A stretch of DNA of 64,000 nt from Candidatus Magasanikiibacteriota bacterium (GCA_016193335.1 JACPSK010000001.1:422962-486961), one strand, 5' to 3'; numbered from the stretch's first letter, positions 6,798 to 55,584 are shown. A program made the numbers and translations. Notes: generated by a model from the letters alone, not told the origin.

Positions 6798-6855
6798 ACA
6801 GACTATACAAGCGGGTTGCCCCGCTTTATATTATATCTTTTCCCGAATAGAATTT

Positions 6856-8112
6856 CTAAAATCCCAATTCATCCTCTATTTCCATCAGCCTATTATACTT
6901 TTCCACCCGCTCTGATCTCGAGAGCGAACCTGTTTTGATGAATTCGGCGTTCACGGCAACGGAAAGATCTGATATAAAGGTATCTGAAGTTTCTCCCGAA
7001 CGATGAGAGACTGAAATCGCGTATTTATGTTTCTGCGCCAGAGAAATCGCGTCAATCGTTTCGCTGAGTGAGCCTATTTGATTTACTTTTATAAGCACCG
7101 CGGTCGCCACATTCATTTCTATCGCTTTTTTGATGCGCTCGGTATTGGTAACGAGGAGGTCGTCACCAACGATGTGAATTTTCCCTTTAACCTGCTTGGT
7201 ACATTTCTGCCAAGCTTCCCAATCGTCTTCATCGAGCGGATCCTCGACAGAAATAATCGGATATTTTTTTATCCAAGTTTCTAGTATTGAAATGATATGG
7301 TCTGAATCGATAGCGGATTTCGCGTCGGCAAAATAATATTTCCCTTTGCGATGAAATTCACTCGCGGCCCAATCCATGGCTATCATTACTTGTTTCCCCG
7401 GCGCGTAGTCCGCTTTTCTTATCGCTTGGACAATATAACGCAGAGCTTGTTCATTATTTGTCAATTCAGGCGCAAATCCTCCCTCATCCCCCACGCCGGT
7501 CGCGAATCCTTTTGAGCGCAAAATACGGTGGAGAGCTTGGAACACCTCGGCCCCCATACGCACACGCTCAGAAAACCGGCGATTGATCGGCACAATCATG
7601 AATTCCTGAATCGAAAGCCCATTGTCCGCGTGCCGTCCGCCGTTCAAAATGTTCATGGTCGGGACCGGCATACGCCAACTCTTATACGAAAGGCCGAATG
7701 TTTGGCGAATGTGTTTGTACAAAGGCTGGCCTTTGCTCTCTGCGGCCGCTCTCGCGCAAGCAAGTGAAACGGACAAAATGGCGTTAGCGCCAAGTTTGCT
7801 TTTGTTTGGCGTTCCATCGAGCGCAAGCATGACCTTATCTATATCGCGCTGTTTTGAAGCGTCCACCCCCGCGAGCGCTTTCCTTATAAGGGTGTTTACA
7901 TTTTTTACGGCTTTCAAAACTCCCTTGCCATTGTAACGTCTCGCGCCGTCTCTCAGTTCTAAAGCTTCGTGCGTACCCGTAGAAGCTCCGCTCGGCACCG
8001 CCGCCTCCGCTTTACTGCCGTCCTGAAGGATAACCCATGTCCTCAGGCTGGGGTTGCCTCGTGAATCCAAAATTTCTCTGGCTATTATCTGTTTTATGCT
8101 TTGTGCAACCAT
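6856..8112 (-). CDS. eno: enolase
   Basis: MVAQSIKQIIAREILDSRGNPSLRT..SHRSGETSDTFISDLSVA; canonical enolase motifs. Confidence 0.95.
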   Translation of the reverse strand: MVAQSIKQIIAREILDSRGNPSLRTWVILQDGSKAEAAVPSGASTGTHEALELRDGARRYNGKGVLKAVKNVNTLIRKALAGVDASKQRDIDKVMLALDGTPNKSKLGANAILSVSLACARAAAESKGQPLYKHIRQTFGLSYKSWRMPVPTMNILNGGRHADNGLSIQEFMIVPINRRFSERVRMGAEVFQALHRILRSKGFATGVGDEGGFAPELTNNEQALRYIVQAIRKADYAPGKQVMIAMDWAASEFHRKGKYYFADAKSAIDSDHIISILETWIKKYPIISVEDPLDEDDWEAWQKCTKQVKGKIHIVGDDLLVTNTERIKKAIEMNVATAVLIKVNQIGSLSETIDAISLAQKHKYAISVSHRSGETSDTFISDLSVAVNAEFIKTGSLSRSERVEKYNRLMEIEDELGF

Positions 8113-8132
8113 AGCTTCGAAAGTTCAAACAT

Positions 8133-8981
8133 TTACTGTATTTCCAACACCACGTTCACGTTCATGCGAATTTCCATACTTCCGGAAGACACCTCCGGCG
8201 CGGCTCCTCCGCCCATTCCGGATTCCATTGAGTACAGTCTCCCATCAAGGTTTCCGGGAGACACTTCAAATTCGCTATAAGAAGCAAGGCCCAAAACTCT
8301 TACTCCAAGAGATTGAGTAAGGCCGAGCGTTTTTTCTTTTATGCGCTCCAGAGCTTTTCTACGCGCTTCTGCCACATACACTTCTTTATCATCTATAGTA
8401 AAATTCAATCCGCTTACACTGTTTGCCCCCACTTCGCCTGCCAAATTCAAAACAGCGCTTGCGTTTTCAAGATTACGAATTTTAATTTCCAATTGTTGAT
8501 TCACTTCATAACCTTTCAAAACTCTACCTTCCTTTTCCGTATAATCGTACATGGGATAAATATTATAAGCCACGGTCCTCATGTCTTTGGATTCCACCCC
8601 AAAGGCCTGCAATCTTTCTGTCAGCTTGTTCATCACCTCTGTGTTTTTTTGTTGTGATTCCGCCACTGTCTTCCCCTCTGAAATCATGCCTATAGTTGTG
8701 ACAGCGATATCCGGCCTGGCTGTAGCCGCTCCTTCGGCTTCTATGTTTATAGTCCGTTGAAGATGCTCGGCTTCCCCGATGGCCTCGTAGGTTTTGAGAT
8801 TATTTCTAATGATAGTGGCAACCCAAACGATAATATACACAAGGAGAATTCCGAGAAGTGTTACAAGCATCTTTTGAACAAAATGATTTGACCAGCAAGA
8901 AGAGGATGTCGCGCTTGGATGGCAGAGTCCACTGTTTCCACAGCAGTCTCCTTTTTTGTTTGAACTTTTTTTGACAGGCAT
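8133..8981 (-). CDS. SIMPL/DUF541 domain protein, N-terminal membrane anchor
   Basis: One TM helix (LVTLLGILLVYIIVWVATII) followed by a SIMPL-like fold (…NIEAEGAATARPDIAV…LEIKIRNLE…). It sits between eno and pgk. Confidence 0.6.
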   Translation of the reverse strand: MPVKKSSNKKGDCCGNSGLCHPSATSSSCWSNHFVQKMLVTLLGILLVYIIVWVATIIRNNLKTYEAIGEAEHLQRTINIEAEGAATARPDIAVTTIGMISEGKTVAESQQKNTEVMNKLTERLQAFGVESKDMRTVAYNIYPMYDYTEKEGRVLKGYEVNQQLEIKIRNLENASAVLNLAGEVGANSVSGLNFTIDDKEVYVAEARRKALERIKEKTLGLTQSLGVRVLGLASYSEFEVSPGNLDGRLYSMESGMGGGAAPEVSSGSMEIRMNVNVVLEIQ

Positions 8982-9177
8982 ACAGTGAAAATTTATAATT
9001 TGTAATTTGTAATTTTTAATTTAAATGATAATTTGAAAATCTTTACAGTGGCATTATACCATACAAGAAAAAAACAAGAAATCCATCATTTGTCTCAAAC
9101 ATAATCATACCAATGCGAGAGGAACTAACATTTTAATTTTTAATTTATAATTTTTATCCAATTTTCAATCTTTAAAC

Positions 9178-9263
9178 AATTTCTATTCTCTTAATTTCTA
9201 ATAGCTGAGTCTGCTATAAGGTATCTTTCAGATAGCGGTATTTCGTTTGGATCATTAGAAATT
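9178..9263 (+). repeat. intergenic repeat family copy B
   Basis: aatttctattctcttaatttctaat…aaggtatctttcagatagcggtatttcgtttggatcattagaaatt, flanked by AT-rich tracts. Confidence 0.6.
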
Positions 9264-9294
9264 ATGTCATTACAAATTGTTTAAAAATTATAAA

Positions 9295-10491
9295 TTAACG
9301 CAAAGCTTCAATCCCCGGCAGTTTTTCGCCGGACAAAAACTCAAGCATCGCTCCTCCGCCCGTTGACACCAAATCAATATATTCTGTCATGCCCGCCATA
9401 TCCATACTTTGTAAAGTTTCACCACCGCCTATCACGCCATAGGCTTTACCTTTTGAACGGGAGGCAACGAGACGAGCTACGGCCAAAGTAGCCACATCAT
9501 AAGGCTTTTGTTCAAATACTCCCATGGCGCCGTTCCATACGAGAGTCTTGGCTTGTTTTATATAAGACGCGAAAAGACGAACGGTTTTCGGCCCCATATC
9601 AAAAATCGCTTCATTTTTTTTGCAGATCAGATGCGGCTTTTTCTCAATATCCACCACTCTAAAAGAACTGCCTCGCGGATTTCCCACCACCAGGTCCAGC
9701 GGCTTAATGACTTTTTTATTTTTGCCGTAAAGCATCGCCTTCCGCGCAAGGTCTTTCTGGACCAAAGAAGCTCCCACACCATAGCCGCGGGCGTATAAAT
9801 AGGTGTTTACCAAAGCTCCTCCGAGCAATATATTTGTTACCTGAGGCAAAAGATGTTTGATAACCGGAATTTTGGTCTCAAGTTTGGCTCCGCCCAACAC
9901 AAGCACAAAAGGTCTTTTTGGCCTTTTCATCACTTTTTCCAAGCCTCTTATTTCTTTTTCCAAAAGCAAACCGGCGTAAGACGGGAGAAAACGCGTGATT
10001 CCAAGCACCGAGGCCGCGGGACGATGAGCCACCGCAAAGCCGTCGAGCACAAATATGTCGGCCAGGCTTGCGAACAGCTCTGCCAATGACTTGTCATTTT
10101 TTTCTTCTCCAGAAGAAAAACGCGTATTTTCAAGCATGGCGATTTGAGAATCTTCCAGATGATTTATTTCAAAACGCACTTTATCCGCTCGCTTCTCAGA
10201 CCAGCTCCAATTTCCCGTATTTATATATTTCACGCCCTTGCCGAGCATAATGCCAAAATGTTCGGCCACCGGAGCAGTAGAAAATGATGGCACTATTTTG
10301 CCCCCCGGCCTGCCAATATGAGTAAGCAAAATAATCTTAGCTCCTTTTTCCATTAAATACTGAACTGTGGGTAAAGATGCTTGCAAACGAGAATGATCAA
10401 GCACTCGGTTCTTCAATAGAGGTACGTTAAAATCCACTCTCAGCAAAACGCGCTTTCCCTTCAATTTTTTTAAACTTTTGATGGATTTCAT
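9295..10491 (-). CDS. pgk: phosphoglycerate kinase
   Basis: VLLRVDFNVP…; full length. Confidence 0.95.
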   Translation of the reverse strand: MKSIKSLKKLKGKRVLLRVDFNVPLLKNRVLDHSRLQASLPTVQYLMEKGAKIILLTHIGRPGGKIVPSFSTAPVAEHFGIMLGKGVKYINTGNWSWSEKRADKVRFEINHLEDSQIAMLENTRFSSGEEKNDKSLAELFASLADIFVLDGFAVAHRPAASVLGITRFLPSYAGLLLEKEIRGLEKVMKRPKRPFVLVLGGAKLETKIPVIKHLLPQVTNILLGGALVNTYLYARGYGVGASLVQKDLARKAMLYGKNKKVIKPLDLVVGNPRGSSFRVVDIEKKPHLICKKNEAIFDMGPKTVRLFASYIKQAKTLVWNGAMGVFEQKPYDVATLAVARLVASRSKGKAYGVIGGGETLQSMDMAGMTEYIDLVSTGGGAMLEFLSGEKLPGIEALR

Positions 10492-27511: not shown

Positions 27512-27678
27512 ACAGGGCCTTGTGGGTCATGGATTCATCACCAAGCAGATCTTGCATGAGCAGGGCCTTAAAAAGGTCCTGTTTTTTGTACAAGTCTATC
27601 CCCCGGCTTGGCTTTCCGCCTTTTGCCCTTTTTGATATAATCCAGCCGCTCTCGCACCCATATTTTAACAATTTTTAT

Positions 27679-28695
27679 ATGCTCAAAAACAAACCGATCT
27701 GCGCGATGTACAACAGCCTGACTCCGGATCTTTCGGGATATATCAAAAAAAAACTTCCCGCCGTGTCTTTCCAGGTTTTTAGCGAGGCCATAAACAAAAA
27801 AAACATTTTGAGACGAACCGAAATTTTGGGCATTTTCGTAGACTCCAAAATAGACAAAGCGGTATTTTCACAAATGCCGTCTCTGCGTTTTATCGCAACT
27901 TTTTCTACCGGTTTTGACCACATAGACCTCAAAGAAGCCCAAAAACGCGGTGTGATTGTCTCCAATGTGCCCAAGTACGGCGAACAAACCGTGGCCCAAC
28001 ATGCCCTGGCTCTCATGCTTGCACTTTCGAGAAAACTTTTTCAATCCGTAAAGAGGGTGAAAGAAGGAGTTTATGATTTCCACGGTCTGAGAGGTTTTGA
28101 CATGGAGGGAAAAACAATAGGCATTATAGGCACGGGAAATATAGGCATTCAACTCATCAAGATGCTCCGAGGGTTTGACCTGCGCGTGCTTGCTTATGAT
28201 GTAAAAAAAAACATGAAAGCCGCGAAAGAATACAAATTCGCTTATACGTCTTTTGAAAAACTCTTATCCGAATCCGACATCATCTCTTTTCATGCTCCCT
28301 TGCTTGAATCAACATATCATTTGATACACAAACAAAATATCAAAAAACTTAAAAAGGGGGTCATTATCATAAACACGGCTCGAGGCGGGCTTATAGACCC
28401 GGAAGCTCTGCTATTGGGATTGGAGCAAGGGAAAATCGCGGGAGCGGGCCTTGATGTTTTGGAAGAAGAAGACGCTTTGCGCGATGCCGAACGACTTATA
28501 TACAGCGAGCATAAAGACAGACTCATCCGCACCAGTCTTATGAACAATCTACTTATAGACCATCCGAACACTATTGTAACGCCTCACAATGCTTTCAACA
28601 GCCATGAGTCTGTGAAACGTATTCTCGATACCTCGGCAGAAAATATATGCGCCTTTATGAAAGGCAAGCCCCAGAATCAAGTTTTGGTGTCTTAG
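27679..28695 (+). CDS. D-isomer-specific 2-hydroxyacid dehydrogenase (D-lactate dehydrogenase-like)
   Basis: GIIGTGNIG (NAD-binding) and a catalytic His (TPHNAF). The start is uncertain (27679 or 27706). It is inserted between rplK and rplA. Confidence 0.8.
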   Translation: MLKNKPICAMYNSLTPDLSGYIKKKLPAVSFQVFSEAINKKNILRRTEILGIFVDSKIDKAVFSQMPSLRFIATFSTGFDHIDLKEAQKRGVIVSNVPKYGEQTVAQHALALMLALSRKLFQSVKRVKEGVYDFHGLRGFDMEGKTIGIIGTGNIGIQLIKMLRGFDLRVLAYDVKKNMKAAKEYKFAYTSFEKLLSESDIISFHAPLLESTYHLIHKQNIKKLKKGVIIINTARGGLIDPEALLLGLEQGKIAGAGLDVLEEEDALRDAERLIYSEHKDRLIRTSLMNNLLIDHPNTIVTPHNAFNSHESVKRILDTSAENICAFMKGKPQNQVLVS

Positions 28696-29518: not shown

Positions 29519-29523
29519 ACCAC

Positions 29524-29556
29524 AAAAAATCCTCTTAAATAAGAGGATTTTTTAAT
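29524..29556 (+). terminator. intrinsic terminator after rplA
   Basis: atcctctta-aa-taagaggat followed by tttttt. Confidence 0.6.
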
Positions 29557-29600
29557 TTGCCTCGCTTGTTCTTTTTTGATATACTTTTTTTATAATTTCT

Positions 29601-30068
29601 ATGGTCCAACATCGCACAAACTATATATCTTGGGATGAATGTTTCATGCGCATGGCGCATGTGATTGCCGAACGTTCCAAAGACCCATCCACTCAGGCGG
29701 GGGCCGTAGTAGCCAATCAAAGAAACGTGGTATTGGGGCTGGGATACAACGGCTTCCCGAGAGGCATACCGGAAGATCAATTTCCATGGGAACGAGAAGG
29801 AAGTCTGGTAAACACAAAATACGCCTATGTCTGTCACGCCGAAGAAAACGCGATATACAATTCAAACAATACCACGGCAGACTGTAAAATCTATTGTACC
29901 TTGTTCCCCTGCAACGAATGCGCCAAAACCATAATCCAAAACGGCATACGAGAAGTTATCTACGAAAGCGACAAATACCATGATATCGAAGCTTTTGTGG
30001 CCTCCCGCCGTTTATTCGACGCGGCCGGTATCAACTACAGACAATATCAATCCGAGTGGACACCATAA
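29601..30068 (+). CDS. dCMP deaminase (cytidine/deoxycytidylate deaminase family)
   Basis: HAEENAI and PCNECAK (zinc-binding). Confidence 0.85.
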   Translation: MVQHRTNYISWDECFMRMAHVIAERSKDPSTQAGAVVANQRNVVLGLGYNGFPRGIPEDQFPWEREGSLVNTKYAYVCHAEENAIYNSNNTTADCKIYCTLFPCNECAKTIIQNGIREVIYESDKYHDIEAFVASRRLFDAAGINYRQYQSEWTP

Positions 30069-30166
30069 ACAGGGTCAAGCTCGGCACGAAACATAATCAG
30101 TACAAACACCCGGGCATCTTTGATTAGAGCCCATCTCAAAAATCCGACACGATAAGACAAACATAC

Positions 30167-30721
30167 ATGCAAAAAATAATCATAGGCATTGCTGGTGAAA
30201 TGGCATCGGGCAAAACAACCATAACCGAGTATTTAAAAAAAAAATACAACGCGAGCACGTTTAGATTTTCAGATATTTTAAGAGACGTTCTCAAAAGAAT
30301 CTGGGTAGAACCGAACCGGAGCAATCTTCAAGATCTTTCCACCTTTTTACGCGGTCGTTTTGGAGAAGATCTCTTGTCAAAAGTGCTGGCCAAGGACGTC
30401 CGCGAATCCAAGGCAGCTTTCATTATCACCGAAGGCATCAGACGCCCGAGCGACATTGTATATTTGAAAAAAAACAAACATTTTTATCTTATAGCTCTCG
30501 AAGCCGATGAACGCACGCGCTTTGAACGCATCAGCGCGCGTTCGGAAAATCCGGACGATCAAAACAAGACATGGAAAGCTTTCAAAAAAGAGGGCGAACA
30601 AGAATCCGAACAAAAAATCAGAAGAGTTATGAAAGAAGCGGACTTCACTATAGACAACAACGGAAATCTGAAATCTTTATACGAGCAAACCAAAAAAATC
30701 GTCTCAAGCATAATGCGCTAA
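30167..30721 (+). CDS. P-loop nucleoside/nucleotide kinase (dNK/CoaE-like); specific substrate not assignable
   Basis: Walker A motif GEMASGKTT; lies between the dCMP deaminase and dut. Confidence 0.55.
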   Translation: MQKIIIGIAGEMASGKTTITEYLKKKYNASTFRFSDILRDVLKRIWVEPNRSNLQDLSTFLRGRFGEDLLSKVLAKDVRESKAAFIITEGIRRPSDIVYLKKNKHFYLIALEADERTRFERISARSENPDDQNKTWKAFKKEGEQESEQKIRRVMKEADFTIDNNGNLKSLYEQTKKIVSSIMR

Positions 30722-30750
30722 GCAAAAATCAAAAACATAATGGAAATCGT

Positions 30751-31182
30751 ATGCGAGTAAAAATTAAACGAGTCGATTCGAGTTTGCCCTTACCCGAATA
30801 TCATACCGAAGGATCGGTGGCATTTGACATCTATACCAGAGAAGAAACCACTATAGAGCCCCATTCATTTGCCGTTGTACCCGGCAACTTTATCTTAGAA
30901 ACTCCGCCCGGCCATATGCTGGTGATAGCCGCCCGATCAAGTTCAGCGAAGAAAAAGGGGCTCAGCATGAGAAACGGCATAGGAATAATAGACCAGGATT
31001 ATTGCGGCAATGAGGACGAGATACATATCATGCTCCAAAATTTAACGTCTGATCCTGTAAGCGTAAGCCGGGGAGAACGCCTGGCACAGGGCGTATTCGT
31101 GAAGATAGAAAAAGCCGATTGGCAAGAAGTGGATAGTATGGCAAAAACCAACAGAGGCGGTTTTGGAAGCACCGGTTCATAA
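30751..31182 (+). CDS. dut: dUTP diphosphatase
   Basis: ARSSSA, GIIDQDYCG and RGGFGSTG. The start is taken at MRVKIKR, not the upstream in-frame ORF. Confidence 0.9.
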   Translation: MRVKIKRVDSSLPLPEYHTEGSVAFDIYTREETTIEPHSFAVVPGNFILETPPGHMLVIAARSSSAKKKGLSMRNGIGIIDQDYCGNEDEIHIMLQNLTSDPVSVSRGERLAQGVFVKIEKADWQEVDSMAKTNRGGFGSTGS

Positions 31183-31188
31183 CTTTGT

Positions 31189-31362
31189 ATGACAAAATAT
31201 ATCACAAACATTATGCGGATTTTTGCCAAGGCCTTTGATCGTTTTCAAAAAAAAGACCTGGAAATCAAACGCGAAGCTCGCGCCATTTATGAACAAGAGA
31301 TACAAAATACTGAAAAACAAAATCTCGAACATATTAGAAAAAAAATAGACTCTTTATCTTAA
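31189..31362 (+). CDS. possible 57-aa small protein (below the track threshold)
   Basis: ATG…TAA ORF read by hand (MTKYITNIMRIFAKAFDRFQKKDLEIKREARAIYEQEIQNTEKQNLEHIRKKIDSLS). Confidence 0.25.
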   Translation: MTKYITNIMRIFAKAFDRFQKKDLEIKREARAIYEQEIQNTEKQNLEHIRKKIDSLS

Positions 31363-31372
31363 CCAAACATGT

Positions 31373-33991
31373 ATGGCAGCACTTTTCAGAAGAAGGGAAT
31401 CTGTACCAGAACCGCATACTGAACCAGCCGAGAACGATGGCGGAGATTTCGACGCGGACACAAAAAAATGGTTCGCGGAATTTGAGGGTGATAATCCGTA
31501 TGCCAAACCGGGCATGATGGCCAAAGTAGCCGCGTCGGACAGAGCAGACGCAGAATACAGGGCAAGAATGAAGGCTCCTGAACCAAAAAAAATGCGCGAG
31601 CCAAACAGACTGGCCAAATTTTTGGGCCTGGGAGTCTTGAGAAATTGGGAAAAAGAAGCTGCGTGGCTTGAAGAGCAGGAAAAGATGAACAGAGAAACAG
31701 CGGAACGCATAGCCGCTGAGCATACGGTGGAACAAAATCTTAAAAGGGCCGGCGAAGAGGCCGAAGAGACTCAAGCGGCCCTAAGACAAGCTCAAGGTAA
31801 GGCTGGTGAAGGAACCCCCGGGGCTCTGCGCCTCCGTGTATTATCTGGGGAAGCAAGACAAAATAAAAGAGCTCTAACATTTGCGGCCAGGAATGCCAGG
31901 GCAGAGCTTAGAATGGTAAGACCGGTAGACCCCAAAAGCGTCCCCGAGAAACGTATTCAAGAGCTTCTCGACGAGGCTGAAGACGAAGATACACTTTCCT
32001 ACGGCCAAGACGGGCATATGCCTTTTGAGTCTTCAGGACAAAAACCAAAAGCAGAAGATACTCAACAAGCCAACGCAGAAAACGCCGAAGACCCAGCTCT
32101 GGAAACTGTAAAAGCAGAGCTCTTGGCCATGTTTAAGGCGGAAGAAAACGAAGGTGTGCATCCTGAAGTCTTGGCAGACGATATAGTAAAGAGTGATTTT
32201 GTGCTTGGGGATCCTGAGCAGGCTCTCAAAGCTCTCTCTGATACCATTAGTGGACTCAAAAAAGGATTGCTAAAAAGAGGCATACGCGTAAGTGAGGAAG
32301 GCACCGTACTTCTTGATAAAGGATCCACGCGAGAAAAGCATCGGGAATATGAAAAACACAGAAAAACAGTGGATTGGCTGCAGGCTCTGATACTTGCGAA
32401 GGAGAAACTGGAGGCTAAGCAAGATACAGATGTGGCGGCTGGTGAAGATGACGATGACCAGCAAGAAAATCAAAATGCAGAATCAGATAATGCAAGAACA
32501 AGCGACAGAAAAAGTGAGGAAACTGAAGAGGGCGAAGGCGCGGAAAAAACTCTAACAGCAGAAGATCTCCTCGCGCAGATTGACATGGACGGAGAGCTCG
32601 TGGATGTGGTGCACCAACTGGCAAAGTTCGACGCATTGGACACTTCCAACACCGCAGGCCGACACCATGTTGATGATCTAATTGCCGAATTAAAAATAGA
32701 TCTTGAAGACCAAGGATATGAATTCGATGAAACAGGAGCAATAAAGCTTGATGATGAATCGAACCCAGTAACCGGAATAAAATACAAAAATCCCGATGAT
32801 AAAGGAAAAATAAAACTTCTACAAGGCTTATACGAAATGAGAGAACTCGAATCTTCTTCTCGCAAACAAAACGACGCCGTGGGATACGGCGAAGGCCAAG
32901 AATTTCCTTTTGATTCTTCCACTCCGGAAGAATATATAGGAAAAGAAGCGGACGAAGACGTTAAAAGACTCGCCTTGCGGATAAAAAACATGAAAAAAAT
33001 ATCAAATCCGCATGAAGGTCTTAAACGCAGGATCGCGGAGTTGCAGGGAGAACTGAGAGATTTAAAAAAAGGCAAAAAGAAAAAAACAGACCCGGAAAAA
33101 CCTCAAGCTACCCTTCACGAACAAACAGATATAGCAAGAGATGGAGAAGATGGAAACAGACCTTCAGAACTTGCGCCAGACCTGTCTGTTGAAAACGCTC
33201 AAGGAGACCATACGGAAGAAGACCCGAAAGAAATTGCTCTACGAAAGGTAAAAGCAGAGCTCTTGGCCATGTTTAAGGATGGGGATAATGAAGGCGTGCA
33301 TCCTGAAGTATTGGCAGGCGATATATTGGACAGTGATTTTATGCTAGAGGATCCCAAACTCGCGCTTGAGGCAGTGTCTGACTCAATTAGTGGTCTGAAA
33401 GATGGTCTCTTGAAAAGAGGCATACGAGTAAGTGACGAAGGAGCTGTCCTGCTTGATAAAGGATCTACCCGCGAACAAAACCCGAAGCACGAAAAACACA
33501 GAAAAACAATAGATTGGTTACAGGCTTTTATTAAGGTAAAAGAAAAACTAGAAAGACAATTGCAAAATCAAAACGACAAAGCCACAGCCTACGGCGAAGA
33601 CGGAGAAATGCCTTTCGAATCTCCAAAACTAAGCTTAGACGAGCGGATAAAACGGCTTACTCTGCGCGTAGAAACCATGAAAAAAATAACAAAGAAACCA
33701 CATGAAGGTCTTAAACGCAGGATCGCGGAATTGGAAGAGAGATTGGAAGCACTCAAAATGAAAAAAACAAAAGAAAAAGAAACCCAAGAACCTAAATCAG
33801 AACTTGCAGGCCGCCAAAAACCCCGAAGTACAAAGAAAGACGATATCCGAGCTCTTGGAGAAGAAATACAAAAATTGGATATCGAAGAGTTGGCCGAACG
33901 GCATAGAAACCCGCGGCGTGCCTTAGTCAGACAAAGCGGACCAAAAAGAGGGGCAGATGGAGACAAGGATACGCTTAAAAAAGCGGCCTGA
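31373..33991 (+). CDS. hypothetical 872-aa acidic, charge-rich protein with internal ~107-aa and ~60-aa repeats
   Basis: Two ~320-bp DNA repeats (32095-32415 and 33235-33555, ~80% identical), plus PHEGLKRRIAEL-containing repeats. No signal peptide and no family recognised. Confidence 0.6.
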   Translation: MAALFRRRESVPEPHTEPAENDGGDFDADTKKWFAEFEGDNPYAKPGMMAKVAASDRADAEYRARMKAPEPKKMREPNRLAKFLGLGVLRNWEKEAAWLEEQEKMNRETAERIAAEHTVEQNLKRAGEEAEETQAALRQAQGKAGEGTPGALRLRVLSGEARQNKRALTFAARNARAELRMVRPVDPKSVPEKRIQELLDEAEDEDTLSYGQDGHMPFESSGQKPKAEDTQQANAENAEDPALETVKAELLAMFKAEENEGVHPEVLADDIVKSDFVLGDPEQALKALSDTISGLKKGLLKRGIRVSEEGTVLLDKGSTREKHREYEKHRKTVDWLQALILAKEKLEAKQDTDVAAGEDDDDQQENQNAESDNARTSDRKSEETEEGEGAEKTLTAEDLLAQIDMDGELVDVVHQLAKFDALDTSNTAGRHHVDDLIAELKIDLEDQGYEFDETGAIKLDDESNPVTGIKYKNPDDKGKIKLLQGLYEMRELESSSRKQNDAVGYGEGQEFPFDSSTPEEYIGKEADEDVKRLALRIKNMKKISNPHEGLKRRIAELQGELRDLKKGKKKKTDPEKPQATLHEQTDIARDGEDGNRPSELAPDLSVENAQGDHTEEDPKEIALRKVKAELLAMFKDGDNEGVHPEVLAGDILDSDFMLEDPKLALEAVSDSISGLKDGLLKRGIRVSDEGAVLLDKGSTREQNPKHEKHRKTIDWLQAFIKVKEKLERQLQNQNDKATAYGEDGEMPFESPKLSLDERIKRLTLRVETMKKITKKPHEGLKRRIAELEERLEALKMKKTKEKETQEPKSELAGRQKPRSTKKDDIRALGEEIQKLDIEELAERHRNPRRALVRQSGPKRGADGDKDTLKKAA

Positions 33992-34002
33992 AATTTTATA
34001 TT

Positions 34003-34875
34003 ATGAGAGCGTATCTCGATATAGTCGACAAAATTTTAAAAGAAGGAAAAGAAAAAAAAGACAGAACAGGCGTGGGCACCCTGGCCGTGGCCGGAGCCAT
34101 GTTTGAGCATGACATGGCAAAAGGTTTTCCTCTTCTCAGCACCAAAAAAATGCCTTTTAAAATCATAGCCACTGAACTTGAATTTTTCATAAAAGGCATC
34201 ACAGACAAACAGTGGCTGCAAGAGCGGGGCAACCATATTTGGGACGAATGGGCGCATCCCAAAAAAGCTCCTTATGGACATGACGAAGCATCAAGAAAAC
34301 GGATGGCCGAAGAAAGAGATTTGGGAGCGGTGTATGGTTTTCAATGGCGGCATTACAATGCTCTATACCAAAATTATGATTCCGATTACTCGGGCCAGGG
34401 AGTGGACCAGCTCAGATACGTAACAGACACGCTCAAAAAAAATCCAAACGACAGACGCATGATCGTATGCGCATGGAATCCTTCCATGCTCAATGAGATG
34501 GCTTTGCCGCCTTGCCACTTTGTGTTTCAGGTGACCGTAATAGAAAACCGATTGAATCTTATGTGGAACCAACGTTCGGTGGATCTTATGCTCGGTCTGC
34601 CCTTTAACATAGCAAGCTATGCTTTATTACTACATCTTCTGGCAAAAGACGCTGGCCTAAAAGAAGGCAGACTCGTTGGCTTCTTGGGCGATGTACATAT
34701 ATATCTCAATCACATTGAGGGAGCCAAAGAACAACTTTCAAGGGACCCTGGGACACATCCCCTCTGTTCAATTGAAACCCAGCCTTTTACTTCGATATTC
34801 GACTGGCAAGCAGAGCATACAAAACAAATCGGGTACACCAGCTATCCAAAAATCAGCTTTGAAATAGCGATATAA
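34003..34875 (+). CDS. thyA: thymidylate synthase
   Basis: RTGVGTLAVAG, a catalytic Cys (PPCH) and DLMLGLPFNIASYALL. Confidence 0.95.
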   Translation: MRAYLDIVDKILKEGKEKKDRTGVGTLAVAGAMFEHDMAKGFPLLSTKKMPFKIIATELEFFIKGITDKQWLQERGNHIWDEWAHPKKAPYGHDEASRKRMAEERDLGAVYGFQWRHYNALYQNYDSDYSGQGVDQLRYVTDTLKKNPNDRRMIVCAWNPSMLNEMALPPCHFVFQVTVIENRLNLMWNQRSVDLMLGLPFNIASYALLLHLLAKDAGLKEGRLVGFLGDVHIYLNHIEGAKEQLSRDPGTHPLCSIETQPFTSIFDWQAEHTKQIGYTSYPKISFEIAI

Positions 34876-34877
34876 AT

Positions 34878-35351
34878 ATGTCCATATCTCTCATCGCGGC
34901 TGTGTCCAAAAATAATTGCATCGGAAAAAATGGCGAGCTCCCTTGGCATATTCCCGAAGATATGAAGCATTTTAAAGAAAAAACAATGGACACTGTGGTT
35001 ATAATGGGTAGAAAAACCTGGGAATCCATACCCGAAAAATTCAGGCCTCTCAAAGGACGCAAAAATGTTGTTATTACCAGACAAGATCAATATCCTGCTC
35101 CGCTTGGAGTGGAGATACACCATAGTCTGGACAAGGCTTTGGAAGCTCACCGAAATGAAAAAATTGCCATTATCGGCGGCGGCCAAATGTATGATCTGAG
35201 TATTGATAAAGCAAATCTGCTCTATATCACTCATGTGGACCGTGTAGTGGAAGGAGACACCTTTTTCCCTGATATTGACAAGAATGCGTGGAGAGAGACA
35301 GAGCGAGAAAACAGAGAAGGATTTTCCTTTGTAACATATGAAAGAATATGA
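34878..35351 (+). CDS. folA: dihydrofolate reductase
   Basis: ISLIAAVSKNNCIGKNGELPW, VIMGRKTW and IIGGGQMY. Confidence 0.9.
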   Translation: MSISLIAAVSKNNCIGKNGELPWHIPEDMKHFKEKTMDTVVIMGRKTWESIPEKFRPLKGRKNVVITRQDQYPAPLGVEIHHSLDKALEAHRNEKIAIIGGGQMYDLSIDKANLLYITHVDRVVEGDTFFPDIDKNAWRETERENREGFSFVTYERI

Positions 35352-36025
35352 AAGGATTGTTCATCATGATAGAAGGGACGGACGGCTCAGGAAAAACCGT
35401 TCAGACCGAACTTCTCAGCGAACGCATCAAAAAAAACGGCCGCCGCGTTGAATTGATCAGTTTCCCTCAATACGGAAAACGCAGCGCCGCTCTTGTGGAA
35501 GATTATTTAACCGGTAAATTCGGCAAAGCCGAAGAAGTGGGGCCTTACCGCGCCTCTATTTTTTATGCTTGCGACCGCTACGCCGCGAGCGAACAGATAC
35601 GACAATGGATCAGAGAAGGATCAATTGTCATAGCAAACCGTTATGTGGCCTCAAATTTAGGCCACCAAGGCGGGAAAATTAAAGATAAAAAAGAGCGGAG
35701 GCGTTATTACGAATGGGATTATCATATAGAATATGATATTTTCAAAATCCCTAAGCCTGACGTCAATATCATATTGCATGTCACGCCCGAAATATCTCAG
35801 TCGCTCGTGGATAAAAAAGAAGCCCGCGCCTATCTGAAAGGAAAAAAGAGAGACATCCACGAAGAAGATCTCGAACACCTGGAAGACGCGGAACAAGCGT
35901 ATTTGGAGATAGCAAAATTGTTCCCTGAATTCAAACTCATTGAATGCGTGGAGTCCGGCTCCATACTTCCCGTTGAGCGCGTACAAGAACATATTTGGGA
36001 TTACGTACGCCCATATATCGAGTAA
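35348..36025 (+). CDS. tmk: thymidylate kinase
   Basis: FIMIEGTDGSGKTVQ. It overlaps folA by 4 nt. Confidence 0.9.
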   Translation: MKGLFIMIEGTDGSGKTVQTELLSERIKKNGRRVELISFPQYGKRSAALVEDYLTGKFGKAEEVGPYRASIFYACDRYAASEQIRQWIREGSIVIANRYVASNLGHQGGKIKDKKERRRYYEWDYHIEYDIFKIPKPDVNIILHVTPEISQSLVDKKEARAYLKGKKRDIHEEDLEHLEDAEQAYLEIAKLFPEFKLIECVESGSILPVERVQEHIWDYVRPYIE

Positions 36026-38663: not shown

Positions 38664-40103
38664 ATGAGACGTCGTGAATTCTTAAAAGGATTAGGGGCCG
38701 GAGCAGCTACTCTATTTTTTACTGGTGACAAAGATAACAAACCAACTCCAGCGCCAATGGAGTCCGAAACCGAGAATGAGAGAGAAAGACCTTTTAGTTA
38801 CAGTGACTTTCTGGAAGGACGCCCTGAATTTTCAAAAAACGCGGCATTGTCTGAACGCGTAGAACAAGCATGGGGAGACGGCACGGCCCTGCTCGATTAT
38901 GTGGCTGATCGCATTCCAGCTGTCATGTCCATTGATTTCCCAAAATCCAAACCTATCAACGAGCTCCTACGCAAAAATTATCCGAAAGTCGTCCCTAACA
39001 TTTTTCTGCAAGACCAGGCTGAAAATGAACTAAGACAAATAGGCCAATGGCTCAGTCTCCTCGCACATATTGCTGGCGCAGAAAGACCATACACGCCAAA
39101 GCTTGTGGACCAGGTGCTTGATTATCTCTACCAAAATAGGGGAACGGGCTTGGCTGATAGAAGTGAAAGTCACATCATGTCGCTCGAAGGCGAACTCGCT
39201 GAACATGCGCCGCAAGACTCTCGCCTACTGTCTCTCATCGAGCAAAGATACAAACAAGGAATTTCAAGCTCTTCGGGTAGTAATGACGACAGTGTTTGGC
39301 ACACAGAGGACGCCAGATTTCCAAGCACACCAGAATTAAGCTGGCTTATGGCCACAGCCGCTCGTTTGCATATGGGGTATGATGAAAAAAAATTTCGTTT
39401 AGTAGAAGAACTCGCTTACGACTTTGATACTGAAGGCAGACAAATATTCAATAACCGAATACCCGAAGTACAGGCATCACCACGAGATTTGGCTGAAGTG
39501 GCATTATACTATATGACTCCTCCAAAAAGTGAGTCAGATCGGCGACGTATTACCATGTCCGGAAATTGGGGCTTTATTGAACATGGCGCCCACGTTGTCC
39601 ATGGAGGACTGCTTCTTTTAGGAACTTACCAAAAAGAAATGGCTGATCGTGATCCTGAACTGCTCAAAAATTTACGCGCTCAGACTTACGAATCGATAAA
39701 AGAGATACTTTTCTATCGTCATTCAGACTCTATTAAAGACAAAAATAAACCTAACCAACAACGAGCGCACGAAGATTACCTCTACGGCGGCCACTTACTG
39801 CAAGCCGTGCTTGATGAACAAGCTGGCGCTATTTTTGAGATACAGGGTGAATTTTTCACCGCTCAGCAAGTCTATACCAAATACGGATCAGAGATTGCAG
39901 AACATGCGGAAAAAATAACAAAAAGTGAAAAACCTGTCACAGACTATGACGCGCTTGATGTATTAGCCACCATCGCAGATCTAGCCGCAAGCGACCTCAG
40001 ACCTGTCGTAGAACACAGCACAGCATCAAAAAGTTCGGTACCTTTTTATGTCGGCCACACCATAGCCGGGCTCAATAGATTAAGGGAAATTATAAAAAAA
40101 TAA
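38664..40103 (+). CDS. hypothetical secreted protein with a twin-arginine signal
   Basis: MRRREFLKGLGAGAATLFF (an RRxFLK Tat motif). No domain recognised. Confidence 0.5.
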   Translation: MRRREFLKGLGAGAATLFFTGDKDNKPTPAPMESETENERERPFSYSDFLEGRPEFSKNAALSERVEQAWGDGTALLDYVADRIPAVMSIDFPKSKPINELLRKNYPKVVPNIFLQDQAENELRQIGQWLSLLAHIAGAERPYTPKLVDQVLDYLYQNRGTGLADRSESHIMSLEGELAEHAPQDSRLLSLIEQRYKQGISSSSGSNDDSVWHTEDARFPSTPELSWLMATAARLHMGYDEKKFRLVEELAYDFDTEGRQIFNNRIPEVQASPRDLAEVALYYMTPPKSESDRRRITMSGNWGFIEHGAHVVHGGLLLLGTYQKEMADRDPELLKNLRAQTYESIKEILFYRHSDSIKDKNKPNQQRAHEDYLYGGHLLQAVLDEQAGAIFEIQGEFFTAQQVYTKYGSEIAEHAEKITKSEKPVTDYDALDVLATIADLAASDLRPVVEHSTASKSSVPFYVGHTIAGLNRLREIIKK

Positions 40104-51624: not shown

Positions 51625-52191
51625 ATGTCTACTTTCCCACACGAAGGACTCCCCGTACAGCCACTACAAAACGAAGACCAAAAACATCCCCAAAGACGTC
51701 ATCTGAGAGCTGTAACCGATCCGGATGAAACAGAAACTCAAAGCAGGGAAGCACTGCTCAGACAGAGGCGAGAGCTTCTCGAGAGAAAAGCGCAAATAGA
51801 ACGCGATTTTGCTAGCCAGATAGCGGCACTGAACGAAGAGTTAAAAACAGTAAACGACTCCATATTGGGCATTTCGGATACGCATAATTCGGGAGTCCGC
51901 AATCGCAAACGCGAAAAGGCACTTGAGGCATACGCAAGAAGCCCTGAATCTCTCATTGAGCATTGTATAATAACAATCACACTGAGACGCACGGACATAG
52001 AACGTTACCAAAGTATGCTCGCTGGAGAACGAAAACGCCAAATAAGCGAAAAAGACAGGCAAGCTTTGACAGATGAAAAAATCGAAGCAAACATCAAGAC
52101 GCTCCAAGAAGATATAGATAGAGCCTGGGACCGAATTAAAGAAATAAGCTCAAACATAAATGAATCCGAAAGAGAACAAAAGGTCGCCTGA
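51625..52191 (+). CDS. hypothetical coiled-coil protein
   Basis: ORF rich in heptad-like E/K/R. It is preceded by an aaattgtaaattaaaaa motif. Confidence 0.4.
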   Translation: MSTFPHEGLPVQPLQNEDQKHPQRRHLRAVTDPDETETQSREALLRQRRELLERKAQIERDFASQIAALNEELKTVNDSILGISDTHNSGVRNRKREKALEAYARSPESLIEHCIITITLRRTDIERYQSMLAGERKRQISEKDRQALTDEKIEANIKTLQEDIDRAWDRIKEISSNINESEREQKVA

Positions 52192-52998: not shown

Positions 52999-53754
52999 AT
53001 GGGTGAAACAAGCAGATTCGCCGCGGAACCCGGGCTGAGAAAGCCAAGCGAACCGAAGCATGATGATCATGCGATTAGTCCTGGCGAAGAAGAGTGGTTC
53101 GAAACGCGCACAGACCTTCCCTATCCCACTGACCCTCAAGAAACACGGACCATGGTAGATTGGGATGGCACCGACATCGGGAGCCCCAAAGAGAGCGGTC
53201 AACTGCGCGACGACAGACCACGATCAAAGCTAGAACGGAGAAAACGATACAGCCAAGAAGAGGCTGATGTTTTGGTTGGCGACTTGGCTTCTGTGGCCGC
53301 GGAGTTAAAACAAGAACCGCAAGCCGCTTCTGACACAAAACCAAGAGCCGGGCAAAATAAGGACGTTTCTTCAACTAGCCTCAAAGAGGTCGGCATTAAA
53401 CTCGAAGTCCTCGGAAACAATCTCAATCTTCTGAAGAGACTCCAATCCATGCCGGATGATAACGCTGAAAAACAATTACACCTGCGGCAGATGGGCTTTC
53501 CCAACAATTTAGAACTTGAGACACGAATTGATCAGGTGCAAAAACAAATCATGGAAGCGCAGGAACACAGAAATTTTCTTGAAATTGCTCCTCCCACTGA
53601 TTACGAAAAGGAACATGGCAATACTGGCTTCGACCAGGCGGCATGGTTCGCCGATGAAGATGAAGCGCCACGAGTAGTCGAACGCATACTGCGTGAAAAA
53701 GGAGAACAACAACTAGAGCCGGAAGACTTTGATGAGATGAATGAAAGACTCTAA
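52999..53754 (+). CDS. hypothetical acidic protein
   Basis: ORF only. Confidence 0.4.
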   Translation: MGETSRFAAEPGLRKPSEPKHDDHAISPGEEEWFETRTDLPYPTDPQETRTMVDWDGTDIGSPKESGQLRDDRPRSKLERRKRYSQEEADVLVGDLASVAAELKQEPQAASDTKPRAGQNKDVSSTSLKEVGIKLEVLGNNLNLLKRLQSMPDDNAEKQLHLRQMGFPNNLELETRIDQVQKQIMEAQEHRNFLEIAPPTDYEKEHGNTGFDQAAWFADEDEAPRVVERILREKGEQQLEPEDFDEMNERL

Positions 53755-53835: not shown

Positions 53836-55584
53836 TCATTTAACTCTATTCTGAATTTCTTTCTGGAGCCTGGCCACAAATTCTTTTTTGGAAATCATTT
53901 CCTGGTCTGCTTGCCCCCGGAACCGTATGTTCCAATCCTTGCCGCTGATTTCGTTTTCCCCCACTACCACAATGTATGGAATTTTTTGTTTCGTGGCTTT
54001 GCGAATTTTTTTGCCCACGGTCTCGTCTGTACTGTCCACTTGAACGCGAATGTTTTGCGCTTTCAATTCATCGGCGAACCGCTTTGCTCCATCCGCATGT
54101 TTGTCATTGGACACGGGAATAAAATGGACTTGCACGGGCGACAGCCACAAAGGAAAATTGCCTGCCGTGTGCTCTATGTACACGGACAAAAACCGCTCTA
54201 TGGAGCCCATCAGCGCGAAATGAACCATAACCGGTGTTTTATCTTCTCCGTCTTTGTCCGTATAGGTCAAGCCAAAACGAGCCGGCTGTACAAAATCAAG
54301 CTGTGGAGTGGCCACCTGCCATTCGCGGCCAATCGCGTCCAAGGCCATGAAATCTATCTTCGGGCCGTAAAAAGCCGCTTCTCCAAAGGCCTCGTAATAA
54401 TCAAGTTCATTTTTCTTTGCTATATCAAGAATGATACTCTCGGCTTTGTCCCATAACGCCGCTTCTCCCAAATATTTTTCCGGCTGAGCTTTATCCCGAT
54501 ACGACAAACGCGCGCGGAGCTTCATACCAATGGTTCCATAAAACTCTTTTACCACTTTTATGAGAGCCCCATATACTTCTTCAATTTGTTCGGGCGTGCA
54601 AAAGGTGTGGCTGTCGTCCTGGGTTATCGAACGCACGCGGGAAAGCCCCAGTAATTCTCCGGCCTTTTCATCGCGGTAAATCGTGGTCGTTTCCATAAAT
54701 TTAAGCGGCAAATCACGGTAACTCCGAGGTTCTGACGCGTATATCTGCTGATGATGCGGACAATTCATGGGTTTCATTACCATTTGATCATCCGTTTCCT
54801 GGCTCTTTACCAAAAATAATTCAGCGCCGAATTTGGCCCAATGTCCGGAGGTTTCGTATAATTCTTTTTTCGTGATATGCGGAATCCAGACTCTCTGATA
54901 TCCGATCCCAACGCGCAAATCTTCCGAATAACGAGTGAGTTCGTCGCGGAGTACGGTTCCTTTTGGAGTAAATAAGGGGAGACCGGAGCCTACCATTTCC
55001 GAAAAAGTAAAAAGTCCCAATTCTTTTCCGAGTTTCCGATGATCGCGCTTTTTAGCTTCTTCGAGCATGTTTATATAAGCATCCAACTCCTCTTTAGTCG
55101 GGAAACAGGTTCCATAAATTCTGGTCAGCATCTGGTTTTTTTCATCCCCGCGCCAGTAGGCCCCCGCGACCGACAAAAGCTTGAAATGCTTCATGTCCTG
55201 ATAAGGTTTCTCGCAATGCCCGCCTTTGCAAAGGTCCACAAAATTTCCCGGATCATTGATCGTTATTTTTTTGCCCTTTTTGGCGAATTCCTCAAGAAGT
55301 TCCAATTTATAAGGATTATCCTGAAAGAGCATCCTTGCTTCATCAAGATCCACCTCTTTATGTTCGAAAAATTTCCAACTCCTTACGATTTCACGCATTT
55401 TTTCTTCAATTTTTGGAAGATCATTTTCTGAAATTTTTACCCTGCCAAAATCAAAATCCTGATAAAATCCATCTTCAATAGAAGGCCCAATAGCGTTATG
55501 GGTCCCCGGCCACAATTCTTTAACAGTCTTGGCGAGCAAATGGGCGCAGGAATGACGGAGATTGTTGAGATGTTCTGAATTCAT
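53836..55584 (-). CDS. thrS: threonyl-tRNA synthetase
   Basis: HSCAHLLA (editing domain), class II motifs, and a C-terminal anticodon-binding domain. Confidence 0.95.
   Translation of the reverse strand: MNSEHLNNLRHSCAHLLAKTVKELWPGTHNAIGPSIEDGFYQDFDFGRVKISENDLPKIEEKMREIVRSWKFFEHKEVDLDEARMLFQDNPYKLELLEEFAKKGKKITINDPGNFVDLCKGGHCEKPYQDMKHFKLLSVAGAYWRGDEKNQMLTRIYGTCFPTKEELDAYINMLEEAKKRDHRKLGKELGLFTFSEMVGSGLPLFTPKGTVLRDELTRYSEDLRVGIGYQRVWIPHITKKELYETSGHWAKFGAELFLVKSQETDDQMVMKPMNCPHHQQIYASEPRSYRDLPLKFMETTTIYRDEKAGELLGLSRVRSITQDDSHTFCTPEQIEEVYGALIKVVKEFYGTIGMKLRARLSYRDKAQPEKYLGEAALWDKAESIILDIAKKNELDYYEAFGEAAFYGPKIDFMALDAIGREWQVATPQLDFVQPARFGLTYTDKDGEDKTPVMVHFALMGSIERFLSVYIEHTAGNFPLWLSPVQVHFIPVSNDKHADGAKRFADELKAQNIRVQVDSTDETVGKKIRKATKQKIPYIVVVGENEISGKDWNIRFRGQADQEMISKKEFVARLQKEIQNRVK

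Follow-up and report, generated by a model that had tools for sequence, protein, structure and literature searches.

A modular polyampholyte and its conserved micro-ORF neighbour in the dut-thyA interval of a Candidatus Magasanikbacteria genome

Does a long protein encoded among the enzymes of thymidylate synthesis belong to that pathway? This question is raised by a 64,000-nucleotide (nt) stretch of DNA from a Candidatus Magasanikiibacteriota bacterium (GCA_016193335.1 JACPSK010000001.1:422962-486961, hereafter the window), in which an intact open reading frame (ORF) of 872 amino acids (aa) with an ATG start, named here ORF X, occupies the interval between dut and thyA (Table 1). The original prediction, made from the sequence alone, described it as embedded in the operon for deoxythymidine monophosphate (dTMP) synthesis. 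Its position is as described, since ORF X lies on the same strand as the genes for dCMP deaminase, a kinase, dUTPase, thymidylate synthase, dihydrofolate reductase (DHFR) and thymidylate kinase, all of them confirmed by Pfam. Membership of the pathway is not supported by that position, as dut adjoins thyA in most relatives with the same gene order. As detailed below, ORF X is almost certainly a real protein-coding gene under selection, and together with a micro-ORF of 57 aa located just upstream it very probably constitutes a two-gene accessory cassette, the dut-thyA interval being a variable slot. ORF X is tied to thymidylate synthesis by position only.

The predicted product is rich in E (13.0%), K (10.4%), A (9.9%), L (9.7%) and D (8.7%). 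Its charged fraction (0.39) is the highest among the 50 non-overlapping ORFs of at least 150 aa in the window (median 0.27), in agreement with the highly charged, E/K/D/A-rich protein that had been announced. With 189 acidic residues (D+E, 21.7%) against 151 basic ones (K+R, 17.3%), a net charge of -38 and an isoelectric point of 5.17, it is a net-negative polyampholyte and not a plain polyanion. The lack of a signal peptide was also confirmed: by hydropathy and sequence, neither a signal peptide nor a transmembrane segment nor a C-terminal sorting signal was found (maximum 19-residue Kyte-Doolittle mean, 0.69), the first 30 residues are hydrophilic (mean hydropathy -1.1) and the C-terminus reads ...DTLKKAA. 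An identical product is recorded as a hypothetical protein in a Candidatus Magasanikbacteria metagenome-assembled genome (MAG). The organism comes from groundwater sites and was detected in the runs SRR12113419, -20, -24, -31 and SRR4343435.

Searches against curated families and solved structures were negative. The full protein matched no Pfam family at E<=0.01, and its modules and motif regions gave only sub-threshold noise up to E 10. No NCBIfam family was retrieved, and the best PHROGs match had an E value of 0.02 (none below 0.01). The best match among PDB sequences was at E 0.26 for the full protein and at E 0.058 for a profile of its modules (alignment A4; none below 0.05). Foldseek comparison of the low-confidence full-length model with PDB reached E 0.66 at best, a value without meaning for such a model, and that of a module model with viral structures (BFVD) reached E 0.44. 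A profile search of 5.8e9 proteins with the five-module alignment A4 returned nothing, the query proteins themselves being also unrecovered, and so weighs neither for nor against the existence of relatives. ORF X could thus be assigned neither to a known repeat-protein family nor, as had been anticipated, to any enzyme of nucleotide metabolism. A winged-helix (wHTH) fold for the modules was considered and rejected, the fold search being negative. No paper linking Magasanikbacteria with thymidylate synthase was found in the literature.

The internal organization of the protein is modular, with three helical domains of ~110 aa (A1, A2 and B), two helical hairpins and three YG..G..PF peptides (Table 1). 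The two long repeats reported initially are present at 32095-32415 and 33235-33555, with an ungapped identity of 74% instead of ~80%; repeat detection delimited them as 32077-32376 and 33217-33516 (75% identity). The best 300-nt in-frame self-match within ORF X was 76%, compared with 43% or less over 300 nt in codon-shuffled controls. At the protein level, A1 (aa 236-350) and A2 (aa 616-730) share 71% identity (E 2e-50). Domain B (aa 396-503), absent from the original prediction, matches A2 by BLASTP (E 1e-4) and aligns lengthwise with the A copies in alignment A4, by which it is a third, old and diverged copy of the A domain. In the shorter repeat a YGx(D/G)Gx(M/F)PF(E/D)S peptide precedes a helical hairpin ('MKKI..PHEGLKRRIAEL'). 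This repeat had been counted as two to three copies of ~60 aa and was resolved into two full copies (aa 504-575 and 739-805; 49% identity over 72 aa, E 7e-17) and one bare 12-residue core, YGQDGHMPFES (aa 209-220, E 3e-5).

The 96 mismatches between A1 and A2 involve all bases (A 27, G 29, C 25 and T 15, by the A1 base), 58% of them fall at codon position 3, and the ratio of nonsynonymous to synonymous substitution rates (dN/dS) is 0.11. These are the features of ordinary divergence, which excludes slippage, a diversity-generating retroelement and assembly duplication as the origin of the repeats. The variable repeat/template repeat pair of such a retroelement was also rejected on its own terms, since the mismatches are not limited to adenine and the scan of neighbouring genes revealed no reverse transcriptase.

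The existence of an orthologue allowed selection to be measured. P0002 (583 aa) is encoded on a 2.8-kb contig between dut and thyA genes that are 85% and 90% identical to those of the window, and on account of these flanks it is the full-length orthologue of ORF X in a close relative. Where they align, the two proteins are 61% identical, and entire modules are missing from P0002, namely A1, the first hairpin and its linker, the second hairpin along with the third peptide, and a portion of the acidic linker. A pseudogenised version in a close relative was looked for, and P0002 proved to be intact, with all its insertions and deletions relative to ORF X in frame. The overall dN/dS is 0.15, with saturated synonymous sites, so that ORF X is under clear purifying selection. 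For the same genome pair, dN is 0.28 in ORF X, 0.078 in dut and 0.060 in thyA; that is, ORF X evolves 3.5-4.6 times faster than its neighbours. The view that this is a maintained modular protein with repeats diverged rather than produced by slippage is therefore sustained by both dN/dS values (0.11 for A1/A2 and 0.15 for the orthologue). Two N-terminal fragments from Hainich groundwater (L086 and L087) are also intact.

The alternative that ORF X is not a meaningful gene, and represents a spurious purine-rich ORF, a pseudogene remnant or a repeat-induced misassembly, finds some encouragement in the absence of a family match and in the fact that short-read contigs of four other runs (L089-L092) end within the gene, precisely at 32137. 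At this point lies one copy of an exact 31-nt repeat common to A1 and A2 (32108-32138 and 33248-33278), a length at which short-read assemblers can break, so the contig ends are best read as an assembly effect. A base difference of 26-28% between A1 and A2 rules out an erroneous collapse or duplication. Two MAG deposits, the second containing ORF X intact in an identical 12,150-nt copy (possibly from the same reads re-used), give the identical 872-aa product, and the first 765 nt of ORF X recur in four other read sets. Together with the intact orthologue and the dN/dS at saturated dS, these data leave this alternative close to refuted. As a separate observation, the contig ends suggest that short-read assemblies are apparently prone to truncate ORF X at the 31-nt repeat.

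Relatives of the protein are very scarce. Among 5.8 billion clustered proteins, a word-seeded search recovered only the ORF X product itself and P0002, and an exhaustive phmmer search of 1.84 billion representatives added only P0003 (191 aa), in which the similarity is confined to aa 15-78 of ORF X. Scans of metagenome and viral contigs, either with an alignment of ORF X and P0002 or with the back-translated DNA pattern of YG[EQ]DG.MPF[ED], revealed no relatives. On this sampling, ORF X belongs to one narrow lineage of Candidatus Magasanikbacteria (Patescibacteria, the candidate phyla radiation). The matching N-terminus of P0003 (EEKWFAEF..AKVAESDRAHAEY..RMK) occurs in a second gene family that is also present in the window, at 52999-53754, next to thrS (53836-55584, minus strand), and at locus L082 (782-1357); judging from the alignment, ORF X and this P0003/52999-53754 family have an N-terminal module in common. 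The 52999-53754 protein also bears a second 'AAWFADEDE' peptide, and a neighbouring ORF (51625-52191) encodes 188 aa, 37% of them charged, with no Pfam match.

The second component of the locus, also missing from the original prediction, was found in the 190-nt 'gap' between dut and ORF X. In this interval the similarity between the window and locus L001 is about as high as in the flanking coding DNA, and it contains the micro-ORF, which is 70% identical to its L001 copy with a dN/dS of 0.16. Gene callers annotate it as a 49-aa product starting at an internal Met (P0007). A lenient tblastn search with the micro-ORF peptide placed homologues at the corresponding site of three Magasanikbacteria loci that are more distant (L013, L030 and L018), and the five peptides align over their full length (alignment A5). 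In Smith-Waterman comparisons, seven of nine cross-lineage pairs gave z values of 5.4-8.2, and none of 5000 composition-preserving shuffles reached the score; the weaker pairs were window-L018 and L030-L018 (z 3.3-3.4). A profile search retrieved 7 proteins of 49-70 aa (E 1e-15 to 6e-18), consisting only of these peptides and close relatives, and no match at cut-off was obtained in Pfam, NCBIfam or PDB.

In every recovered contig the micro-ORF has dut (or the end of the contig) on one side and a long ORF on the other. In L013, L030 and L018 this long ORF starts 20 nt or less after the micro-ORF, or overlaps it, and ends just before thyA. A cassette was consequently defined as a homologous ORF of 56-58 aa right after dut, followed at 20 nt or less (or with overlap) by an ORF that has 340 aa or more, is 31% or more charged and stops just before thyA. 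Such a cassette is present in the window, L001, L013, L018 and L030, and truncated copies come from Hainich (fragments L083-L087). For the L013, L030 and L018 long ORFs, Pfam and NCBIfam gave no family above cut-off, a sub-threshold Filament match (21 bits; cut-off 40) was obtained for that of L013, and no internal DNA repeats were detected in any of the three. Homology between ORF X and the long slot ORFs of L013, L018, L019, L030 and L015 was sought and rejected (best BLASTP E 0.3). With hhalign, the alignment of ORF X and P0002 gave a probability of 0.1% against L013 and L018, and the N-terminal four-sequence profiles A6 and A7 gave 0.2%. Similar-looking termini (MAALFRRRE/LSKLFRRE and ..KKAA/..KKAAA) are at chance level, their scores being reached by 35 and 405 of 2000 shuffles over ten tests. 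As far as can be judged by alignment, the micro-ORF is thus the sole part of the unit conserved across genera, and its long partner appears either to have diverged beyond recognition or to have been replaced. Its bulk character is kept: the partner is always long, 31-39% charged, net negative and devoid of known domains.

The distribution of the cassette was determined by a thyA-based scan with one genome per species, which returned 80 loci. Across Magasanikbacteria and their neighbours the gene order is repeatedly L1-dcd-kinase-dut-thyA-folA-tmk-membrane protein-gatB. In about two dozen related loci with dut upstream of thyA on the same strand, the two genes are mostly 3-500 nt apart, and tblastn (E 1e-5) detected no relative of ORF X encoded there. 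Ten loci (L004, L010, L011, L017, L020, L023, L026, L033, L034 and L038) have the same enzymes in the same order without any insert. An insert at this position in relatives, which the original prediction had proposed to look for, was confirmed for the P0002 contig and the cassette loci and not for most relatives. Other occupants of the slot are unrelated to ORF X. L012 (8805-9614) and L050 (8704-9507) carry an HD/YfbR-like putative 5'-deoxynucleotidase, which plausibly belongs to nucleotide metabolism, and L050 has in addition an AAA_14/DUF4143 ATPase (7560-8690). The L015 slot (5976-9917) encodes a 1313-aa protein with a C-terminal WipA-like phosphatase domain (PF21663, 58.7 bits), of a family named after a Legionella effector, and that of L019 encodes a 372-aa protein with no Pfam family. 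A core component of the dTMP operon would be present wherever the array occurs in the clade, and ORF X is not. Since most same-order relatives have no insert and others have unrelated genes there, ORF X is not a core part of the thymidylate pathway. Nor does position by itself say much about function, because the conserved order also includes genes foreign to nucleotide metabolism, namely the membrane protein and gatB.

A structural model was obtained with AlphaFold2 from a two-sequence alignment (mean predicted local distance difference test, pLDDT, 57.8). Helices 80-143 (64 residues) and 149-181 (33 residues) form a confident long hairpin (pLDDT ~75-83 for aa 91-180); each of A1, B and A2 forms a compact module of helices plus a small beta-hairpin, and both hairpin repeats are also confident. 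These alternate with low-confidence segments of pLDDT below 50, namely aa 1-26, 202-240 (around peptide m1), 353-393, 499-523 (around peptide m2), 570-616, 737-752 and 840-872. Peptides m1, m2 and m3 and the acidic linker all lie inside these segments; aa 351-400 carry a net charge of -15. Several short islands are strongly conserved in P0002. Around m1, 9 of 10 residues are identical (aa 210-219), compared with 8/20 and 4/21 in its flanks (12/41 in all). The motif KWFAEFEG.NPYAKP (aa 32-46) is identical at 14 of 15 positions, the m2 region (aa 499-513) at 13 of 15 and DIRALGEEIQKLDIEE (aa 824-839) at 15 of 16. The best-conserved block of ORF X spans aa 50-100 (47/51).

What could such a protein do? 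The best overall explanation, which we hold tentatively, is an accessory and fast-evolving cassette whose long product would be a multivalent adaptor. The adaptor role taken by itself is a possibility to which slightly less weight is given. ORF X would be a cytoplasmic protein-protein adaptor, a location suggested by the missing export signal, in which disordered acidic linkers connect the three helical domains and the two helical hairpins. These linkers would display the three YGx(D/G)Gx(M/F)PF(E/D) peptides, the N-terminal KWFAEFEG peptide being a fourth. We would expect a multivalent docking protein to look like this, with folded modules joined by acidic linkers on which short conserved peptides are exposed. 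The peptides may be docking sites, and the partner docked there would either bind several times or be clustered by ORF X. The micro-ORF product would be the likely constant partner. The dTMP enzymes are possible, but unlikely, clients.

Several points weigh against this explanation. The adaptor idea is drawn entirely from the architecture of ORF X. Because the full-length model is poor, 'disordered' partly means 'no information', and the conservation islands were defined from two full-length sequences only. The long ORFs of L013, L018 and L030 may, on sequence grounds, be unrelated genes that merely follow the micro-ORF. In addition, the cassette is missing in L002 and L005-L008, whose thyA genes are 73-75% identical to that of the window, compared with 70-71% in the carriers; since relatives with a closer thyA have no cassette, its function is dispensable.

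Among the alternatives, the most obvious given the position of the gene is a scaffold for thymidylate synthesis, tethering dCMP deaminase, dUTPase, ThyA, DHFR and Tmk and channelling dUMP to dTMP and dTDP in the manner of the phage T4 deoxynucleoside triphosphate (dNTP) synthetase complex or the eukaryotic SHMT-TYMS-DHFR complex. ORF X is tightly packed in the dcd-kinase-dut-X-thyA-folA-tmk array, all the cassettes found sit at dut/thyA even in lineages with thyA only ~70% identical, and an architecture with three domains and three peptides is multivalent. The peptides end in E/H/E-M/F-P-F, like the tip DDDIPF of SSB, the protein that binds single-stranded DNA, and a version of this scaffold would use such [acidic]-[M/F]-P-F peptides as a link to the replisome. 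Recognition of the SSB tip, however, involves the free carboxylate of its last Phe, which is needed at the C-terminus, and the ORF X peptides are internal. Most relatives manage with the same enzymes in the same order and no insert, in others the slot is filled by unrelated genes (HD/YfbR-like, WipA-like phosphatase, AAA ATPase), ORF X changes several times faster than the enzymes it should fit, and linkage that extends to a membrane protein and gatB is not functional evidence. The scaffold is for these reasons improbable. Still more so is the wider proposal that the micro-ORF and the polyampholyte form an undescribed two-gene Magasanikbacteria system tied to dUTPase and thymidylate synthase, a dNTP-synthesis scaffold acting as an SSB-tip-mimic hub. 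In that proposal the peptides would bring enzymes of the dTMP pathway or of uracil avoidance to replication proteins, and the scaffold sequence would be free to drift while valency and charge were kept; its optional, patchy distribution and its fast evolution argue against it.

A host-interaction or conflict protein of an episymbiont, exported independently of a signal or engaged in defence or counter-defence, with a slot that merely tolerates insertions, would account for the fast evolution, the module shuffling, the patchy distribution and the variety of slot occupants, one of them with a WipA-like phosphatase domain; lineage-specific unknown genes are, moreover, very common in Patescibacteria (PMC9132574). 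This is nevertheless unlikely, as no signal peptide, transmembrane segment or sorting motif was found, the dN/dS values of 0.11-0.15 are purifying and at this resolution give no hint of positive selection, no PHROG matched at E<0.01 and no viral fold below E 0.4, and the cassette stays at one locus as vertical inheritance predicts. A structural, coiled-coil or cytoskeleton-like protein (for shape, division or attachment) with the micro-ORF product as a small assembly partner is unlikely too. The 64- and 33-residue helices and the two further helical hairpins, the richness in E, K, A and L and the sub-threshold Filament match of the L013 positional counterpart would fit it, and the coiled-coil or cytoskeletal role proposed originally keeps weak support from the long helical hairpin. 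No continuous rod is predicted, however: ORF X matches neither Filament (PF00038) nor any coiled-coil family in Pfam, globular modules and ~40% of low-confidence linker interrupt the helices, and proteins of this kind are usually conserved in length, whereas ORF X gains and loses modules between close relatives. Very improbable, finally, is nucleic-acid mimicry by a polyanion, with a DNA-binding enzyme blocked as the result, or nucleic-acid binding through winged-helix modules, in spite of the net charge, the very acidic linkers and a helix-helix-helix-hairpin order in the modules that superficially resembles a winged helix. The nucleic-acid-binding polyanion of the original prediction is not compatible with 17% K+R, which makes a polyampholyte and not a DNA-like surface, and the profile search against PDB sequences gave nothing below E 0.05.

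Comparison with described systems gave analogies only. The C-terminal tip of SSB is given as DDDIPF (PMC10573954, PMC7145534). The ORF X peptides share with it a four-residue core that is acidic, hydrophobic and Pro-Phe (DGEMPF, DGHMPF and QEFPF), a disordered acidic context and the presence of several copies (three in ORF X, a tetramer in SSB). They differ in being internal (aa 210-220, 505-515 and 740-750 of 872) and followed by E/D-S, and ORF X has no oligonucleotide/oligosaccharide-binding (OB) fold, so they are not SSB C-terminal tips. CsoS2 of the carboxysome is a repetitive disordered scaffold encoded among its client enzymes. ORF X resembles it by analogy, being large and multivalent, with internal repeats and peptides on flexible segments, and encoded in an operon of metabolic enzymes. 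CsoS2 is basic and conserved wherever the alpha-carboxysome operon occurs, whereas ORF X is net acidic, restricted to one lineage and missing from most genomes with the same operon, and no relation in sequence or fold connects them. Acidic repeat or coiled-coil organisers such as MamJ, PopZ and the Mycoplasma terminal-organelle proteins with EAGR boxes can be mentioned as leads only. Like them, ORF X is acidic, repeat-bearing and partly disordered, with aromatic-glycine-rich motifs (YGxDGxMPF), but it matches no Pfam family up to E 10, EAGR included, and has no link with them in taxonomy or genomic context.

In the AGNOSTOS catalogue, 283,874 lineage-specific unknown Patescibacteria genes are grouped into 54,343 clusters, of which 45,788 are at species level (PMC9132574). 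ORF X resembles these unknowns in being restricted to a genus or species group, lacking Pfam domains and being known from MAGs only; it differs from them in its unusual length, its resolved modules, the selection measured and a micro-ORF partner that is conserved more widely. If the adaptor explanation is true, function would reside in valency, charge and a few short peptides and not in a conserved fold, and only the 57-residue partner would be recognisable between genera, which would help to explain the orphan genes of Patescibacteria. If the dut/thyA link is functional, ORF X would be the first candidate for a dedicated thymidylate-synthesis scaffold in a bacterium. If neither holds, it is one more lineage-specific gene in a phylum with hundreds of thousands of them (PMC9132574). 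The micro-ORF-anchored cassette, new here, is the sole unusual feature of the finding.

Table 1. Features of the ORF X locus, related ORFs and flanking genes (window positions unless a locus is named).
Feature	Position	Strand	Size	Remarks
ORF X	31373-33991	+	872 aa	lineage-restricted modular polyampholyte
Micro-ORF	31189-31362	+	57 aa	MTKYITNIMRIFAKAFDRFQKKDLEIKREARAIYEQEIQNTEKQNLEHIRKKIDSLS; starts 6 nt past dut stop, ends 10 nt before ORF X
N-terminal region	31373-31987	+	aa 1-205	KKWFAEFEGDNPYAKP peptide, aa 31-46; conserved block, aa 50-100; predicted helical hairpin 80-143/149-181
Peptide m1	32000-32032	+	aa 210-220	YGQDGHMPFES; predicted disordered linker
Domain A1	32078-32422	+	aa 236-350	predicted helices, small beta-hairpin, long helix; missing from P0002
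Acidic linker	32423-32557	+	aa 351-395	predicted disordered; poorly conserved, partly deleted in P0002
Domain B	32558-32881	+	aa 396-503	diverged A copy; 67% identity to P0002 B domain
Peptide m2	32885-32917	+	aa 505-515	YGEGQEFPFDS; repeat matches
Helical hairpin T1	32924-33079	+	aa 518-569	..KRLALRIKNMKKISNPHEGLKRRIAELQGEL..; missing from P0002
Domain A2	33218-33562	+	aa 616-730	66% identity to the single A domain of P0002
Peptide m3	33590-33622	+	aa 740-750	YGEDGEMPFES; repeat matches, low pLDDT
Helical hairpin T2	33635-33781	+	aa 755-803	pLDDT ~70-84; missing from P0002
C-terminal region	33773-33988	+	aa 801-872	conserved block DIRALGEEIQKLDIEE; basic tail ending KKAA
Micro-ORF homologue	L013 7265-7441		56-58 aa	
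Micro-ORF homologue	L030 8112-8282		56-58 aa	
Micro-ORF homologue	L018 8773-8949		56-58 aa	
Long ORF	L013		854 aa	34% charged, net negative
Long ORF	L030		562 aa	31% charged, net negative
Long ORF	L018		341 aa	34% charged, net negative
dcd (dCMP deaminase)	29601-30068	+		Pfam
P-loop kinase (AAA_18)	30167-30721	+		Pfam
dut (dUTPase)	30748-31182	+		Pfam PF00692, 79.5 bits; upstream border of slot
thyA (thymidylate synthase)	34003-34875	+		Pfam PF00303, 314 bits; downstream border of slot
folA (DHFR)	34878-35351	+		Pfam
tmk (thymidylate kinase)	35348-36025	+		Pfam
Charged protein adjoining thrS	52999-53754	+	251 aa	P0003 orthologue; no Pfam match; outside cassette

The genes of the locus are closely packed: 11 nt separate ORF X from thyA and 2 nt separate thyA from folA, which overlaps tmk by 4 nt. 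A consensus scan of all intergenic gaps between dcd and tmk was negative for terminator-like sites, and pattern matches located a strong hairpin (29523-29554) and promoter-like sites (29557-29605) in the rplA-dcd gap. This arrangement would fit a single dcd-to-tmk transcription unit including the cassette. Upstream of the array are secE, nusG, rplK, a 2-hydroxyacid dehydrogenase gene and rplA, and downstream of tmk a GPDPase_memb-type membrane protein and then gatB. Rfam and tRNA scans of the 64-kb window detected neither a tRNA gene nor any Rfam family at gathering score, so no RNA element accounts for the region; a ribosomal-protein leader near rplK/rplA was also not found in the Rfam scan.

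Some additional features of the window were recorded. The dehydrogenase gene (27520-28695, plus strand; D-isomer-specific 2-hydroxyacid dehydrogenase) lies between rplK and rplA, inside an otherwise classical secE-nusG-rplK-rplA cluster, and rplA is followed by the dTMP genes and not by rplJ-rplL-rpoB. The dCMP deaminase and P-loop kinase genes (29601-30721), which are separate here, are reminiscent of a fused protein, the anti-phage dCTP deaminase NF041025. Of the 437 positions in that profile the kinase matches the first 210, with 48.6 bits, far short of the cut-off of 400, and the dcd-kinase order is the reverse of that in the fusion; the pair is probably housekeeping. Just 3' of gatB, an ORF at 38664-40103 (plus strand) encodes 479 aa; the N-terminus (MRRREFLKGLGAGAATLF) is twin-arginine-like, and Pfam gave no match. 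Finally, a 60% G+C island in this 44% G+C genome (13727-15478) contains long ORFs on both strands, the minus-strand one encoding a charged, A/E/P-rich protein of 583 aa with no Pfam match, and this island may be foreign DNA.

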